A program made the translations under genes and the position numbers. A stretch of DNA of 12,347 nt from a virus, in the UHGV virus genome UHGV-0179105. One strand, 5' to 3'. Under the pieces are notes generated by a model. The model did not search any database. It was not told the DNA's origin and saw only the letters and a list, made by a program, of their open reading frames with translations. This document shows positions 1-12,347 of this stretch, in pieces (the stretch's first letter is position 1; every line of letters begins with the position of its first letter).

Positions 1-535
1 GATCTGGACTTGTATATCTTTCGTTCAGGTAGCTGCGTATGTCCCGGATATTTTGTCCGCAGGTGTTGCTGATCAGCTCTGCGCCATCGTAAATGGGAAA
101 GACCACAGCCAACTCGTGACCGTCCGGGTCAGAATAAAGACCAAGAATCGTCTCGGTGTTATAGTTGATGTGTTTGACATTTTGGCAAATCGTTTCAGCA
201 TAGGATTTGAGATAATCGCCGAAGCGGTGCATAAACGGAATGAGATCTTTATCGCAGACATCGGAAACATCCTGTACGTAGGATTCATCGTACAGCATAT
301 TGAACAGAATGCCGGTGATACCATTTAGTGTGACAACGTACTCCCTGACGGGGTGCCGGTCAAACTCAGTTATGTCAATGACATTCTGTACATAAACAGG
401 AACGTTTTTCACAGCGCTATGTGCAGACTGGGTGTCGTCAGGGATATTCAATTCACCGATAGCGTTTGTCCAATAATAGAAATTCGTATGATCAAGCGTG
501 TGCATATCGATAATTTTCATGGTAGGTGTATCCAT
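1..535 (-). CDS. hypothetical protein (partial; C-terminus lies beyond the window start)
   Basis: Hand translation of the minus strand from ATG at 535-533 (alternative in-frame ATG 520-518) reads about 178 codons to position 1 with no stop; GGAGG at 550-546 sits 10 nt upstream. Absent from the ORF track because its stop codon is outside the window. Confidence 0.6.
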   Translation of the reverse strand, partial: MDTPTMKIIDMHTLDHTNFYYWTNAIGELNIPDDTQSAHSAVKNVPVYVQNVIDITEFDRHPVREYVVTLNGITGILFNMLYDESYVQDVSDVCDKDLIPFMHRFGDYLKSYAETICQNVKHINYNTETILGLYSDPDGHELAVVFPIYDGAELISNTCGQNIRDIRSYLNERYTSPD

Positions 536-550
536 GACCAAACATCCTCC

Positions 551-970
551 TTATTGTGAAAGCATATAGCCGCGCTGAAAGTCTACGCAGTGATTCCAGT
601 CCATGACTTCAGAGATGGAATTATCGCAGACTTCATTTTCAAAGGCACATTCGGCAATGAGTTGGCAATAATCTGCGACCGTGAGCGCATTCTTGCCGGT
701 GTCATGGATGCCGCCGTAGCTTTCCACCATCCCAAACAGCGTTTTATAATAGCTGCTGATATGACCTGAGATCTCATCAAGAGTCATGTCGCCGACATCT
801 TCAACGGATTGCGTGACGCAATAGGTTTTATCCGTGTCTTCTGTGGTGTCCAGCCAGATGATCTGGGTGAATTCATACCTGGTAGGGGAGAGCTTGCGGC
901 AATACTGGGCGCAGTCGGAATCTGTCAGAAACCAGCTGCCGACATTGCTGGGAAGATCATGTACATTCAT
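551..970 (-). CDS. hypothetical acidic protein, 139 aa
   Basis: Track ORF 551..970; ATG at 970 preceded by AAGGAGA with 6-nt spacer (minus strand); protein rich in D/E. Confidence 0.7.
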   Translation of the reverse strand: MNVHDLPSNVGSWFLTDSDCAQYCRKLSPTRYEFTQIIWLDTTEDTDKTYCVTQSVEDVGDMTLDEISGHISSYYKTLFGMVESYGGIHDTGKNALTVADYCQLIAECAFENEVCDNSISEVMDWNHCVDFQRGYMLSQ

Positions 971-985
971 TGTGATTCTCCTTAT

Positions 986-1498
986 TCAAAGCCAGTTGAC
1001 GAAATTGATGCAGGAACCATAGCAGCAGACGAGATAGTCCGTCATTTCATTTGCCTCTTCCGGGCGAATGACTTCGATGACACTAGGCTTGAACCATTTA
1101 TTGACCTGTTCCTCGATTTCATCCCAGTCCTGCGTAGTCATATTGGGGATATCACTGTCGTCTTGTTCGACAAACCACATATCGTTTTCGCTTTGCCAAC
1201 AATTTTCAAGCCAACAAGCCAGATAGAAGTTGAGATCAGATAGTCTGGGAAGGAAGTTGTTGCCGTTCTCATACTGCTGGATAATGTTCTCGGCATATTC
1301 AGCGCATTCTTTCATACTAGAAGCAATCATGCGAAGTTTAAACAGATGTTTGATTTTGTCAGGGTCATTATAACCAACGAACGACTGACGGATTTCATGA
1401 TAGTAGATATCTACAACATAGAACCAGGTGTCATCTTCAAAAGATGTTTGCATAAAAGGGGTGATCTTGACTTCATATTGGTCATAATTCTTCGACAT
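986..1498 (-). CDS. hypothetical acidic protein, 170 aa
   Basis: Track ORF 986..1561, but the internal ATG at 1498 (MSKNYDQYEV...) has AAGGAGG 9 nt upstream, and the upstream gene's stop (1513-1515) falls just 5' of that RBS; the longer start at 1561 would overlap the upstream gene by about 50 nt. Confidence 0.65.
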   Translation of the reverse strand: MSKNYDQYEVKITPFMQTSFEDDTWFYVVDIYYHEIRQSFVGYNDPDKIKHLFKLRMIASSMKECAEYAENIIQQYENGNNFLPRLSDLNFYLACWLENCWQSENDMWFVEQDDSDIPNMTTQDWDEIEEQVNKWFKPSVIEVIRPEEANEMTDYLVCCYGSCINFVNWL

Positions 1499-1512
1499 GG
1501 CGCAGAACCTCC

Positions 1513-2145
1513 TTATTTGAGCGTTTCGTTTACGAAAAAGATGTCGTTGTGTTCGTAACATTTATGACATGTCAGGCAGTTGCGGGCACCGCAGTTGATC
1601 TCGACATTATGCTGCTTGCTGTACGCCTTATCGTAGACGGTGAATACCTTATCGATCCAGCTGTAATTGGAGAAATCCTGCGAGACCTGATTGAGGTGGT
1701 CGGAACTGTATACGCAAATCAGATTGTCCGGCTTGCCAAGCTCCTGAATAGCCTTATCCATGAAGGCGGCGTTCTTTGTCCAGAGAGCGATCGTACACCA
1801 CGGATTTGCCCTGGCAATGCGGATATAGTTCTTAGCGTGAGTCACATTGACAAGGTCGCCATGACTTTCAAACCGGGCAATACGGCTGTTCAAAACAGGC
1901 AGCTCGTAAACCTCAAGGTCATGACTGGAAAGAATCTTGGTGTTTTCTGCATAGCGGTTTCGTGCGGCGGGGTAGATGGCCAGACCACGCTTGGCATAGC
2001 AGTGTGCGCATACGCTGGTTTCATCCTTGGCACGCTGTTCACAAATGGGGTTGCAGAGCATACTGGTAGTGATGGTCGGAATGCCGTTCATTTTGCCTTG
2101 CGGGTGAGAGATAAAAATCTGTTCTATGACACGATCGTTTTTCAT
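1513..2145 (-). CDS. Cys-rich hypothetical protein, 210 aa (putative metal-binding)
   Basis: Track ORF 1513..2172; preferred start ATG 2145 (MKNDRVIEQ...) with AAAGGA 8 nt upstream. N-terminal cluster C-x3-C-x10-C-x2-C (CNPICEQRAKDETSVCAHCYA) and C-terminal cluster C-x4-C-x2-C-x2-C (CGARNCLTCHKC). Confidence 0.65.
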   Translation of the reverse strand: MKNDRVIEQIFISHPQGKMNGIPTITTSMLCNPICEQRAKDETSVCAHCYAKRGLAIYPAARNRYAENTKILSSHDLEVYELPVLNSRIARFESHGDLVNVTHAKNYIRIARANPWCTIALWTKNAAFMDKAIQELGKPDNLICVYSSDHLNQVSQDFSNYSWIDKVFTVYDKAYSKQHNVEINCGARNCLTCHKCYEHNDIFFVNETLK

Positions 2146-2269
2146 GTTATGTATCCTTTCTTGGCAGCGCACAAGAGCGGATACAATATTCAGTTTTTAT
2201 ATCTAACCCTTGGCGGCTGGTATTACAGCATTAGTGCGGCGAAAAGTGGTTGTTTTGTTTCAATCATGG

Positions 2270-2297
2270 CAAGGAGATCCATTACGATTCCTCCTTG
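2270..2297. other. 7-bp inverted repeat CAAGGAG ... CTCCTTG spanning a gene end
   Basis: CAAGGAG at 2270-2276 and CTCCTTG at 2291-2297 are exact reverse complements with a 14-nt loop; spans the stop of the 2282..2506 gene and an SD-like AAGGAGG. Confidence 0.4.
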
Positions 2298-2506
2298 AAA
2301 AAGCCCCAGTTAGTCATAGTCGATTCGATACGGTCTGAAAGGTCACCATAATCACAGCCGTAGATGTTTGTATCGCCGCAGGCAGCATCTCCGACGGCAT
2401 CCCTGTCGCGGTCGGGATTGTCGATCTTGACACCCTTTTCATCGAGAAAGTCTTCAAAGATGTCAATGATTTGGCCGATAAATTCGAGCTTGTCGCTGTT
2501 TGTCAT
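2282..2506 (-). CDS. hypothetical acidic protein, 74 aa
   Basis: Track ORF 2282..2590; preferred start ATG 2506 (MTNSDKLEF...) with AGGAGA 8 nt upstream; the upstream gene's stop is at 2523-2525. Confidence 0.55.
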   Translation of the reverse strand: MTNSDKLEFIGQIIDIFEDFLDEKGVKIDNPDRDRDAVGDAACGDTNIYGCDYGDLSDRIESTMTNWGFFKEES

Positions 2507-2522
2507 ATACATATTCTCCTGA

Positions 2523-11741: not shown

Positions 11742-11748
11742 TCATGAA

Positions 11749-11776
11749 GTAAAACCGGATGGGCGTCCGGCTTTAC
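11749..11776 (-). terminator. hairpin (terminator- or attenuator-like) between the direct repeats
   Basis: Minus-strand RNA GUAAAGCCGGA-CGCCCA-UCCGGUUUUAC forms an 11-bp stem including one G-U wobble; the same position is an A-C mismatch on the plus-strand transcript, which argues for function on the minus strand. The U-run is only 4 nt and partly inside the stem, so terminator strength is doubtful. Confidence 0.3.
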
Positions 11777-11778
11777 TT

Positions 11779-11803
11779 ACTGTTGAATTGTGTATTCTAC
11801 AAT
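11779..11803. repeat. 25-bp direct repeat, copy B (ACTGTTGAATTGTGTATTCTACAAT)
   Basis: Matches copy A at 23 of 25 positions; overlaps the -10 element of the candidate minus-strand promoter. Confidence 0.8.
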
Positions 11804-11821
11804 ATCACAATCGCTTTGCAA
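11794..11821 (-). promoter_or_regulatory. candidate sigma70-type promoter
   Basis: Minus strand reads TTGCAA (11821-11816), 16-nt spacer, TAGAAT (11799-11794); each hexamer matches consensus at 5 of 6 positions; located in the 204-bp gap upstream of the 11697/11745 start. Confidence 0.35.
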
Positions 11822-11901
11822 TTACAATGGGCTTGAAAGAATTGCGCAAAATAGGTGCGCTCTAGCTAGTATCATTAAAATTCATATTGACTCCTTATCT
11901 G

Positions 11902-12114
11902 TCACAGGTCAAACTTGATATCGCAACCCTGGCGTTGAAGCTCGGCGAGTTTGGTGATGATGGCATAGTGGATGTATTGCGGGGTGGTGGAGATATCGGC
12001 TTCACAGCGTTTGAAAGGGTAGGCGACGATGAAATTGCGGTCACGGTTCTGGATTTCATACCAGTCTTTATCTCGATTGTATGTAACAAATACGATGGGT
12101 TTACGGCGTGCCAT
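11902..12114 (-). CDS. hypothetical protein, 70 aa
   Basis: Track ORF 11902..12138 begins at a TTG; in-frame ATG 12114 (MARRKPIVFVTYNRDKDWYE...) has AAAGGAG 7 nt upstream. Confidence 0.6.
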   Translation of the reverse strand: MARRKPIVFVTYNRDKDWYEIQNRDRNFIVAYPFKRCEADISTTPQYIHYAIITKLAELQRQGCDIKFDL

Positions 12115-12134
12115 GTAGGTGCTCCTTTCCAGAA

Positions 12135-12290
12135 TCAATCCTCGTAGAATGTGATGGCAGCATTGTGCTCAAAGCTGTAGATGATAGACTTGATATAATC
12201 ATCATCTGCGGTGCGAAAGGCGCGCTCGGCTTCCTTTTTGGTGGTTCCGAACATCCAGGAATAAGCGAACAGGAATCGCTTCTTTAACAT
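12135..12290 (-). CDS. hypothetical small protein, 51 aa
   Basis: Not in track. Hand translation MLKKRFLFAYSWMFGTTKKEAERAFRTADDDYIKSIIYSFEHNAAITFYED; AAAGGAG 9 nt upstream of ATG 12290. Confidence 0.5.
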   Translation of the reverse strand: MLKKRFLFAYSWMFGTTKKEAERAFRTADDDYIKSIIYSFEHNAAITFYED

Positions 12291-12308
12291 GGGTGGAAAC
12301 TCCTTTCA

Positions 12309-12347
12309 TCACGCAATCGCACTTTTCTTGCTGTCACGGATGGGCAG
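12309..12347 (-). CDS. 3' end of a gene entering from beyond the window end (partial)
   Basis: Open minus-strand frame ...LPIRDSKKSAIA then TGA at 12311-12309, overlapping the RBS of the next gene; only 12 codons are visible, so this is weak. Confidence 0.3.
   Translation of the reverse strand: MPIRDSKKSAIA

Follow-up and report, generated by a model that had tools for sequence, protein, structure and literature searches.

Organisation of the gene array

The 12,347-nucleotide (nt) stretch analysed here, UHGV virus genome UHGV-0179105 (hereafter, the window), is one entire metagenome contig (ENA ERZ1034818 NODE_385) and holds a dense array of small co-directional genes, which is the subject of this study. 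Using a stop-to-stop scan together with inspection of start codons and Shine-Dalgarno (SD) sites, we identified 31 complete genes and two that are truncated at the ends, all on the minus strand (g00 to g32; Table 1), in agreement with an earlier reading of the letters (the first-pass annotation) that had described a one-strand array of about 33 small genes. Except at three alternative starts, our gene model coincides with the gene calls stored with the ENA contig. Genes occupy 92% of the window, their products have a median length of 84 amino acids (aa), and the median intergenic gap is 12 nt, with 25 of the 31 junctions at 30 nt or less, much as the "mostly under 30 nt" of the earlier reading. 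All five ATGA overlaps recorded in it (6686-6689, 7243-7246, 7914-7917, 8981-8984, and 10602-10605) are present, as is the TAATG junction at 6469-6473, and a further overlap of 8 nt joins g04 and g05. For g14, a start placed inside an ATGA overlap would be consistent with coupled translation.

ATG is the start codon at 32 of 32 starts, and an SD-like tetramer lies 4-17 nt upstream of 30 of these (GGAG or GAGG in 24 of the 30). Among 286 other same-strand ATGs that served as a control, the corresponding frequencies were 12% and 6%, and the SD enrichment at the array starts far exceeds chance; the GGAGG-type sites earlier reported at nearly all starts are thus borne out. Moreover, between the window and related genomes, the differences at codon positions 1, 2, and 3 number 1275, 801, and 3078, and because they concentrate on the third position, the frames of the window are under coding selection. 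The long plus-strand open reading frames (ORFs) are antisense shadows.

Two descriptive points of the first-pass annotation hold in part. The products are mainly acidic, with an isoelectric point (pI) below 5.5 in 25 of the 32 window proteins and below 4.5 in 11 of them, but the Cys motifs attributed to them are limited, since two or more CxxC motifs are found in g06, g11, and g29 only. Likewise, the array is "uninterrupted" as a same-strand run, but not as a seamless unit, since it has larger breaks of 204, 197, and 136 nt. Terminator-like hairpins occur in the 204-nt and 197-nt gaps, together with a promoter-like site and a direct repeat of 41 nt. The 11.3 kb that run from g04 leftwards to the window end showed no intergenic terminator-like hairpin, and a scan for a sigma-70-like consensus returned 25 promoter-like sites against 19.2 ± 4.0 expected, and hence no excess.

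Replicon, flanks, and mosaicism of the array

A megablast search with the whole window found no match among 50,697 phage and 72,556 plasmid (PLSDB) records. In IMG/VR, the window proteins recur on viral contigs at 75-100% identity. About 20 such contigs encode g29 at 81-100% identity, most of them 124-150 kb in length (with outliers of 64-101 kb and 233 kb), and three carry g11 at 74-75% identity. Blastn against these contigs revealed a mosaic synteny, in which blocks of 66-98% identity are broken by unrelated DNA. The closest relative, with 83-92% nucleotide identity to the window (IMGVR_UViG_3300045988_160402, 142,902 bp; hereafter, relative 160402), was walked from 13.8 to 99.2 kb (~85 kb) and annotated with PHROGs. 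In the direction of the array, it encodes a cI-like helix-turn-helix (HTH) gene, a MazF-like gene, a 685-aa phrog_1735 protein, ABC-transporter genes, and a PspA-like protein. Further along are a 754-aa kinase-phosphatase-RNA ligase (phrog_8238, E = 1.7e-213), a Sak4-like ATPase, and a DnaB-like helicase, and then a primase, an exonuclease, and a PolIII-alpha-like polymerase (phrog_405, E = 1.4e-189). On the other side, and in the opposite direction, there are genes for an integrase, PAPS-reductase-like, HicB-like, Thg1-like, and DnaD-like proteins, and an SbcD-like exonuclease. Beyond these lie the terminase large subunit (phrog_2, phrog_5989, and phrog_38), the portal (phrog_2739, E = 1.6e-121), and a capsid-region block, with terminase and portal at ~90.5-93.8 kb. 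No relaxase, type IV secretion system (T4SS), or conjugation genes were found in the 85 kb walked. Given the terminase and portal genes of the relative, and the lack of relaxase and T4SS genes in these 85 kb, the window's replicon is, by the gene content of relative 160402 and not of the 12-kb window itself, a tailed phage rather than a plasmid or an integrative and conjugative element (ICE). The first-pass annotation had left both origins standing and suggested a look at the flanks for terminase and capsid genes versus relaxase and T4SS genes; from what the close relative carries, the phage origin is retained and the plasmid or ICE leading region is not.

As a separate observation, genomes of this phage family carry genes for a polynucleotide kinase-phosphatase-RNA ligase fusion of 754 aa (L065 ~13565-15829) and for a Thg1-like tRNA-His guanylyltransferase (L071 10001-10822), with Thg1-like homologues in 344 IMG/VR stretches. 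By analogy, the two would be a tRNA-repair toolkit of the kind that phages turn against anticodon nucleases.

Within the window's own lineage, two contigs define the limits of the array. The first, L003 (15.9 kb and 99.98% identical), extends the window 4.9 kb downstream. On the upstream side, 9.9 kb are added by the second, L009, which is the end of an 83.7-kb scaffold; an N-gap lies at the junction, where L011 and L012 confirm the adjacency. The co-directional run reaches from ~L009 2853 to ~L003 15152, and the full array comprises ~24 kb and ~60 genes, with the window as its middle 12.3 kb. Upstream of the array and on the opposite strand is a tyrosine integrase gene in L009 (Pfam, E = 4.5e-11; phrog_216, E = 4.4e-37), with ~1.8 kb of non-coding DNA in between. 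No credible ORF occurs in this interval (L009 996-2853), which contains several promoter-like sites and is a candidate attP or regulatory region; scans for tRNAs and Rfam families were negative for the window, for L009 (this interval included), and for L003. The downstream end of the array converges on a 102-aa HTH_3/cI-like gene on the opposite strand (L003 15059-15367), which is divergent from the next rightward operon that leads to the replication genes, with 160 nt containing back-to-back promoter-like sites (to L003 15528). As judged by this layout, the cI-like gene and the divergent operon look like a lysis-lysogeny switch, and the array is a predicted transcription unit separate from the operon leading into replication, and for this reason "early" cannot be read from operon membership. 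In temperate phages, the zone by the integrase, att, and immunity gene is the classical site of non-essential accessory genes.

Related arrays also lie on contigs longer than the phage itself, these being L260 (201 kb), L267 (280 kb), and L262 (829,264 bp; ERZ28762145 contig_2178, positions 105,807-126,139), which implies integrated prophages or assembly concatemers. Together, the integrase, the cI-like gene, and the arrays on these long contigs suggest a temperate lifestyle, and the phage is probably temperate. Regarding the host, the nearest cultured relatives of the DnaB-type helicase are found in Psychrobacillus phage Perkons (36%) and the ~165-kb Bacillus siphoviruses of the Tsamsa, PBC2, and Kirov group (~29%). 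In public records, cluster members go by the names "Caudoviricetes sp." and "Siphoviridae sp. ct96x5", and one 153-kb contig binned as a metagenome-assembled genome (MAG) is labelled Neglectibacter timonensis (Bacillota, Clostridia). The strong SD usage, the helicase relatives, and the MAG label all support a Firmicute host, as the first-pass annotation had suggested from its SD sites, and on these grounds the host is very probably a Firmicute and probably a human-gut member of the Clostridia. A GTDB scan (185,579 species representatives) with g29 and g27 revealed no relative, and therefore no host can be named from a prophage.

The gene content of the array is mosaic. In a presence/absence matrix of 32 related genomes, with an orthologue taken as at least 70% identity, the number of genomes with an orthologue ranges from only 1 to 30 depending on the window gene, the rare genes being g17, g23, g26, and g32. 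In all relatives, g19 is replaced by versions at 39-49% identity, and non-synonymous codon changes outnumber synonymous ones in g13, g16, g20, g21, g25, and g26. Moreover, the G+C content at third codon positions (GC3) spans 0.29 to 0.71 per gene, and neighbouring genes differ strongly. An accessory island, rather than one named system, was what the first-pass annotation had proposed, and the mosaic across 32 genomes, the cassette swaps, and the GC3 range all agree with this. A low-GC patch is formed by g19-g21 (4244-5426; GC 0.34-0.41, GC3 0.29-0.34, with a regional mean of ~0.46), and the genes that precede it have a GC3 of 0.6-0.7; by composition, the patch may have been acquired recently and from another source.

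Among the cassettes that relatives carry in the array is a radical-SAM-like 321-aa gene before DUF5052. In three of them, the g13-g16 slot is filled by a 335-aa protein of DUF7666 plus pentapeptide repeats (Pentapeptide_2, E = 1.2e-29; L256 13905-14912, L257 9306-10313, and L267 10718-11725). As pentapeptide-repeat proteins are known DNA mimics, this protein is a candidate nuclease- or gyrase-directed inhibitor. At the distal array end in five relatives (L259, L262, L263, L266, and L268) there is a NAMPT_N plus NAPRTase protein. Directly upstream of this NAMPT-like gene in L259, L262, L266, and L268 lies a gene for a 266-aa Prs-like protein (L259 19243-20333), which has no Pfam match but resembles a ribose-phosphate pyrophosphokinase (PDB 4twb, E = 1.1e-11), whereas in L263 a 148-aa gene precedes instead. 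In NARP1, a counter-defence pathway of phages, a Prs-family gene followed by a Nampt-family gene rebuilds NAD+ against NAD+-depleting defence (doi 10.1101/2024.02.11.579819). The pair found in the relatives has a NARP1-like NAD+ reconstitution architecture by sequence, and would tie the array to counter-defence through guilt by association.

Domains and candidate functions

The 32 window proteins were searched as linker-joined concatenates in NCBIfam, PADLOC, and PDB sequences, and none of them gave a match in these three collections. Pfam matches to "Serglycin" were rejected as artefacts of the Gly-Ser linkers in the concatenated queries. Above the curated Pfam cut-offs there are three matches, namely g08 (Bro-N), g27 (DUF5052), and g29 (GP88), and not the single recognisable domain earlier reported, while PHROGs returned anti-repressor families for g08 and families of unknown function for g10, g11, and g27. 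No known anti-defence or defence family was matched by the window proteins in Pfam (including the ArdA, Ocr-type, and DUF2829 models), PHROGs, NCBIfam, PADLOC, or PDB sequences. The proposal of an anti-defence island accordingly gains no support from the window genes taken by themselves, but does find it in the same array of five relatives (the NARP1-like pair in four, and the NAMPT-like gene only in L263) and in the rapid turnover.

In g08, the Bro-N domain scores 31.5 bits against a cut-off of 25.6 bits, and the protein matches six PHROG anti-repressor families (E = 1.4e-14) whose source names are "prophage antirepressor-like" and "BRO family". On this basis, g08 is an "anti-repressor-like" predicted DNA-binding protein; its residues 110-434 have no Pfam match, and hence no C-terminal domain of the ANT/KilAC type was detected. 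For g27, the match to DUF5052 (PF16475) spans model positions 2-199 of 199 with 219.8 bits, and is accompanied by a match to phrog_2316 (E = 2.3e-38; source name "DUF5052 [Siphoviridae sp. ct96x5]"). Its N-terminus, as read by eye, shows a hydrophobic signal and then a Cys (…ILALSLCSC…), and g27 is therefore probably a secreted protein or lipoprotein, which would make it a candidate for superinfection exclusion or surface modification. The third protein, g29, matches GP88 (PF17338) with 59.6 bits against a cut-off of 24.4 bits and has distant homologues in Pelagibacter and Roseobacter podoviruses. Orthologues of g29 occur in 30 of the 32 relatives at 81-100% identity (98-100% in most), and its codon differences comprise 514 synonymous and 67 non-synonymous ones, a pattern that suggests a likely core function embedded among accessory genes. 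A literature search on PF17338 (GP88) and DUF5052 found no papers.

Two further families stand out. That of g07 comprises more than 500 sequence clusters, is found on phages and other mobile elements, and has an invariant C-terminal TEWDRSxTTxLFPDEY motif with no Pfam or NCBIfam family match; its invariant residues include W41, R62, E82, D84, and Y96. The g07 model, predicted with confidence, has a RelE/ParE-like fold, for which the Foldseek match is not significant. Moreover, RelE/ParE toxins are basic, whereas g07 is acidic, lacks a match to their sequence families, and has an upstream partner that is not conserved in distant homologues. A toxin-antitoxin pair of g06 and g07 was considered and rejected as a general rule, since the distant g07 homologues are preceded by an LPD29 protein or an unrelated 75-aa protein; they also adjoin LPD29 and Prok-E2/ThiF genes. 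For g10, the family has invariant residues H100, F110, D115, G120, and Y154, and the predicted fold found no match among solved structures. Neither model, as predicted, identifies a function. Still, g07 could counter toxin-antitoxin or ribosome-targeting defences, either as a decoy or as an inhibitor, and g10, whose invariant residues include His, Asp, and Tyr and whose fold lacks a structural neighbour, might be a novel enzyme of the phage-host conflict.

Other genes gave less. A match of g06 to DUF4428 reaches 17.4 bits, which is below the 27.8-bit cut-off, and the 90%-identity cluster of g05 has three members only. One of three array paralogues is g15, the others lying downstream at L003 11764-12009 and 12015-12338 (41% identity, E = 3e-23).

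Interpretation of the array

We read the window as the central 12.3 kb of a ~24-kb, ~60-gene accessory array of an uncultivated, probably temperate, ~140-150-kb tailed phage of a human-gut Firmicute, with a probability of roughly 0.75. The array's replicon type, position, coding status, packing, and mosaicism are established by the scans and comparisons described above. Expression would proceed from a few long polycistronic mRNAs, with a translation that is presumably SD-driven and, as many genes are packed closely enough, partly coupled. The array is built of small cassettes that are gained, lost, and replaced singly among sister genomes, and its products may act singly, and not as one machine, as modulators of phage-host and phage-phage conflict. 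Here, the Bro-N protein might serve in regulation, the DUF5052 protein in exclusion or surface modification, and some of the acidic ORFans in counter-defence.

Such an architecture is ordinary and comes as no surprise, as one-strand runs of small ORFans by the integrase and immunity genes are familiar in large temperate Firmicute phages. Known accessory regions near att or immunity include the lambda b region, int-to-N interval, and nin region, the y-gene blocks of SPbeta, and the central variable region of Cluster N mycobacteriophages. Like these, the array adjoins an integrase and a repressor, contains many small co-directional ORFs of no assigned function, is mosaic among otherwise collinear relatives, and mixes regulators, membrane proteins or lipoproteins, and conflict genes. 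It differs from them in its far greater length (~24 kb, ~60 genes) and closer packing, in running against the direction of both flanking genes (integrase and repressor), and in its uncultivated phage lineage. Anti-defence clusters of phages, such as the Bacillus phage loci with tad1, gad1, and NARP operons, and anti-CRISPR loci, share with the array the small acidic proteins and the cassette-like turnover among close relatives, but the window has neither an Aca-type HTH regulator nor a homologue of a validated anti-defence protein.

Most recently discovered counter-defence proteins came from hypervariable phage accessory regions. That the array is a reservoir of several still-unrecognised counter-defence families, with the g07 family as the clearest candidate, is a tentative idea that we hold to be possible rather than probable. 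The phage lineage has a large genome and occurs widely in metagenomes of the human gut, with hundreds of contigs; none of its members is in culture. Its array offers ~30 unannotated protein families for direct screening, most tractably those of g07 and g10, and sister genomes place a NARP1-like operon beside them.

Several points weigh against the preferred reading of the array as a whole. No window gene has detectable homology to an experimentally characterised anti-defence, defence, or host-shut-off protein in the five collections searched (Pfam, PHROGs, NCBIfam, PADLOC, and PDB sequences), and the NARP1-like pair was found in neither the window nor L003, i.e. in the window's own lineage. 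Structures were predicted for two of the 32 proteins (g07 and g10), of which one gave an ambiguous fold match and the other no match. Moreover, because g29 and g27 have no relative among the GTDB species representatives, integration and host identity rest only on long metagenome contigs (seen for up to 10 kb on each side) and one MAG label.

Alternatively, the array might be a lysogenic-conversion or moron region, expressed from the prophage and protecting or altering the lysogen by superinfection exclusion or prophage-encoded defence. Temperate Firmicute phages do carry exclusion genes (ltp and sie) between integrase/att and repressor, and the array likewise sits between an integrase with a presumed att region and a cI-like repressor, includes the DUF5052 protein with its signal-peptide or lipoprotein-like start, forms a transcription unit apart from the replication operon, and has related arrays on contigs far longer than the phage. 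However, no PADLOC defence model was matched, ~60 tightly packed genes by far exceed typical prophage-expressed morons, the NARP1-like operon of the relatives serves the infecting phage and not the lysogen, and "anti-repressor-like" Bro-N genes are more usual in lytic-phase operons. We consider such a region improbable on balance, though it is the only one of the rivals that stays reasonably likely.

A host-takeover module of the SPO1 or T5 pre-early type, whose products shut off host DNA, RNA, and protein synthesis right after DNA entry, is rather unlikely. These modules are largely conserved within a lineage, while the array is the most variable part that was compared, and the phage appears to be temperate by its integrase, cI-like gene, and long contigs. 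Resemblance to the SPO1 module and the T5 pre-early region is one of form, i.e. dozens of small same-strand genes with strong ribosome-binding SD sites, short gaps, and mostly acidic products without homologues. However, the SPO1 and T5 modules are defined by early promoters, a location in the terminal redundancy, and demonstrated host shut-off, whereas the array is known from sequence and varies between close relatives, and neither an early-promoter series nor a terminal-repeat location could be shown for it.

Still less likely is a single multi-subunit system made up of the overlapped run g08-g15 (10285..6139). Seven consecutive junctions there overlap or have a gap of 3 nt or less, and the gene order recurs in ~10 relatives, but the genes are unequally distributed (at the 70% threshold, g08, g09, and g10 in 19-21 genomes, g11 in 9, g13 in 6, and g14 in 14), the g13-g16 slot holds a pentapeptide-repeat gene in L256, L257, and L267, and, Bro-N aside, no enzymatic or structural domain is recognisable. 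Lastly, a plasmid or ICE leading region, the first DNA transferred in conjugation, would likewise show small acidic ORFs arrayed on one strand, with many conflict genes among them, and the LPD29 and Prok-E2/ThiF neighbours of distant g07 homologues are typical of conjugative-element accessory regions, but this origin is effectively refuted by the terminase, portal, capsid-region block, and phage-type replication module on the 83-92%-identity relative, the lack of conjugation genes (relaxase/T4SS) in the 85 kb walked, the fact that every large carrier is an IMG/VR viral contig, and the lack of a megablast match among the plasmids.

One minor feature remains to be described. The 204-nt gap between g02 and g03 (11698-11901) holds the two 41-nt repeat copies, which are separated by a second hairpin with a T-run, and a promoter-like site overlapped by the upstream copy (Table 1). 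This layout resembles a duplicated regulatory region and is specific to the window's lineage. Relative 160402 lacks the repeat in the 66 kb compared, and the repeat is therefore no family-wide early-promoter motif.

Table 1. Genes and gap g02/g03 features of the 12,347-nt window (positions in window coordinates)
Feature	Position	Strand	Description	Relatives and matches
g00	12309..12347	minus	last 12 codons + stop (…LPIRDSKKSAIA*) of an upstream gene of ~190 aa, cut by contig end	L011:3-566 translation ends identically
g01	12135..12290	minus	51 aa; no annotation; SD AAAGGAG	at least 70% identity in 17/32 related genomes
g02	11902..12114	minus	70 aa; basic (pI 9.0); no annotation
Mini-ORF	11885..11862	minus	7 codons, good SD; gap g02/g03
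Terminator-like hairpin	11860..11844	minus	gap g02/g03
Promoter-like site	11821..11794	minus	TTGCAA-16-TAGAAT; overlapped by upstream repeat copy
41-nt direct repeat, two copies	11701-11741 and 11763-11803	minus	204-nt gap g02/g03
g03	11563..11697	minus	44 aa; terminator-like hairpins after it at 11548..11523	weak phrog_19836 match, E = 0.0028
g04	11174..11365	minus	63 aa; first of tight gene run; 8-nt overlap with g05
g05	10765..11181	minus	138 aa; acidic; 6 Cys; no annotation	81-83% identity in 12 relatives
g06	10602..10763	minus	53 aa; CxxC…CxxC zinc-ribbon-like pattern; ATGA overlap with g07
g07	10315..10605	minus	96 aa; acidic (pI 4.7); widespread unannotated family
g08	8981..10285	minus	434 aa; N-terminal Bro-N (residues 18-108) + unannotated C-terminal 300 aa
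g09	8565..8984	minus	139 aa; acidic; ATGA overlap with g08
g10	7914..8561	minus	215 aa; pI 4.1; conserved family
g11	7243..7917	minus	224 aa; pI 4.1; 10 Cys, three CxxC; zinc-ribbon-rich, acidic	phrog_26364, E = 7.4e-16
g12	6992..7246	minus	84 aa
g13	6686..6991	minus	101 aa (99 aa if ATG at 6985); fast-evolving	42 synonymous vs 86 non-synonymous codon differences
g14	6471..6689	minus	72 aa; basic; without SD; start inside ATGA overlap
g15	6139..6471	minus	110 aa; pI 4.1
g16	5922..6122	minus	66 aa	weak phrog_37721 match
g17	5701..5889	minus	62 aa; pI 10.1	found in 6/32 relatives only
g18	5435..5671	minus	78 aa
g19	5031..5426	minus	131 aa; lowest GC (0.34; GC3 0.29)	relatives with distant versions only
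g20	4519..4965	minus	148 aa (151 aa if GTG at 4974); 7 Cys; without clear SD
g21	4244..4462	minus	72 aa
g22	4088..4231	minus	47 aa; 4 Cys
g23	3905..4081	minus	58 aa	found in 5/32 relatives
g24	3719..3892	minus	57 aa
g25	3462..3701	minus	79 aa
g26	3169..3459	minus	96 aa
g27	2523..3152	minus	209 aa; DUF5052 family
g28	2282..2512	minus	76 aa; pI 4.1	found in 26/32 relatives
g29	1513..2145	minus	210 aa; GP88 family; basic; 10 Cys; 136-nt gap upstream
g30	986..1498	minus	170 aa; pI 4.2
g31	551..970	minus	139 aa; pI 4.2; 7 Cys
g32	1..535	minus	N-terminal 178 codons of 270-aa protein	full length at L003 10436-11248

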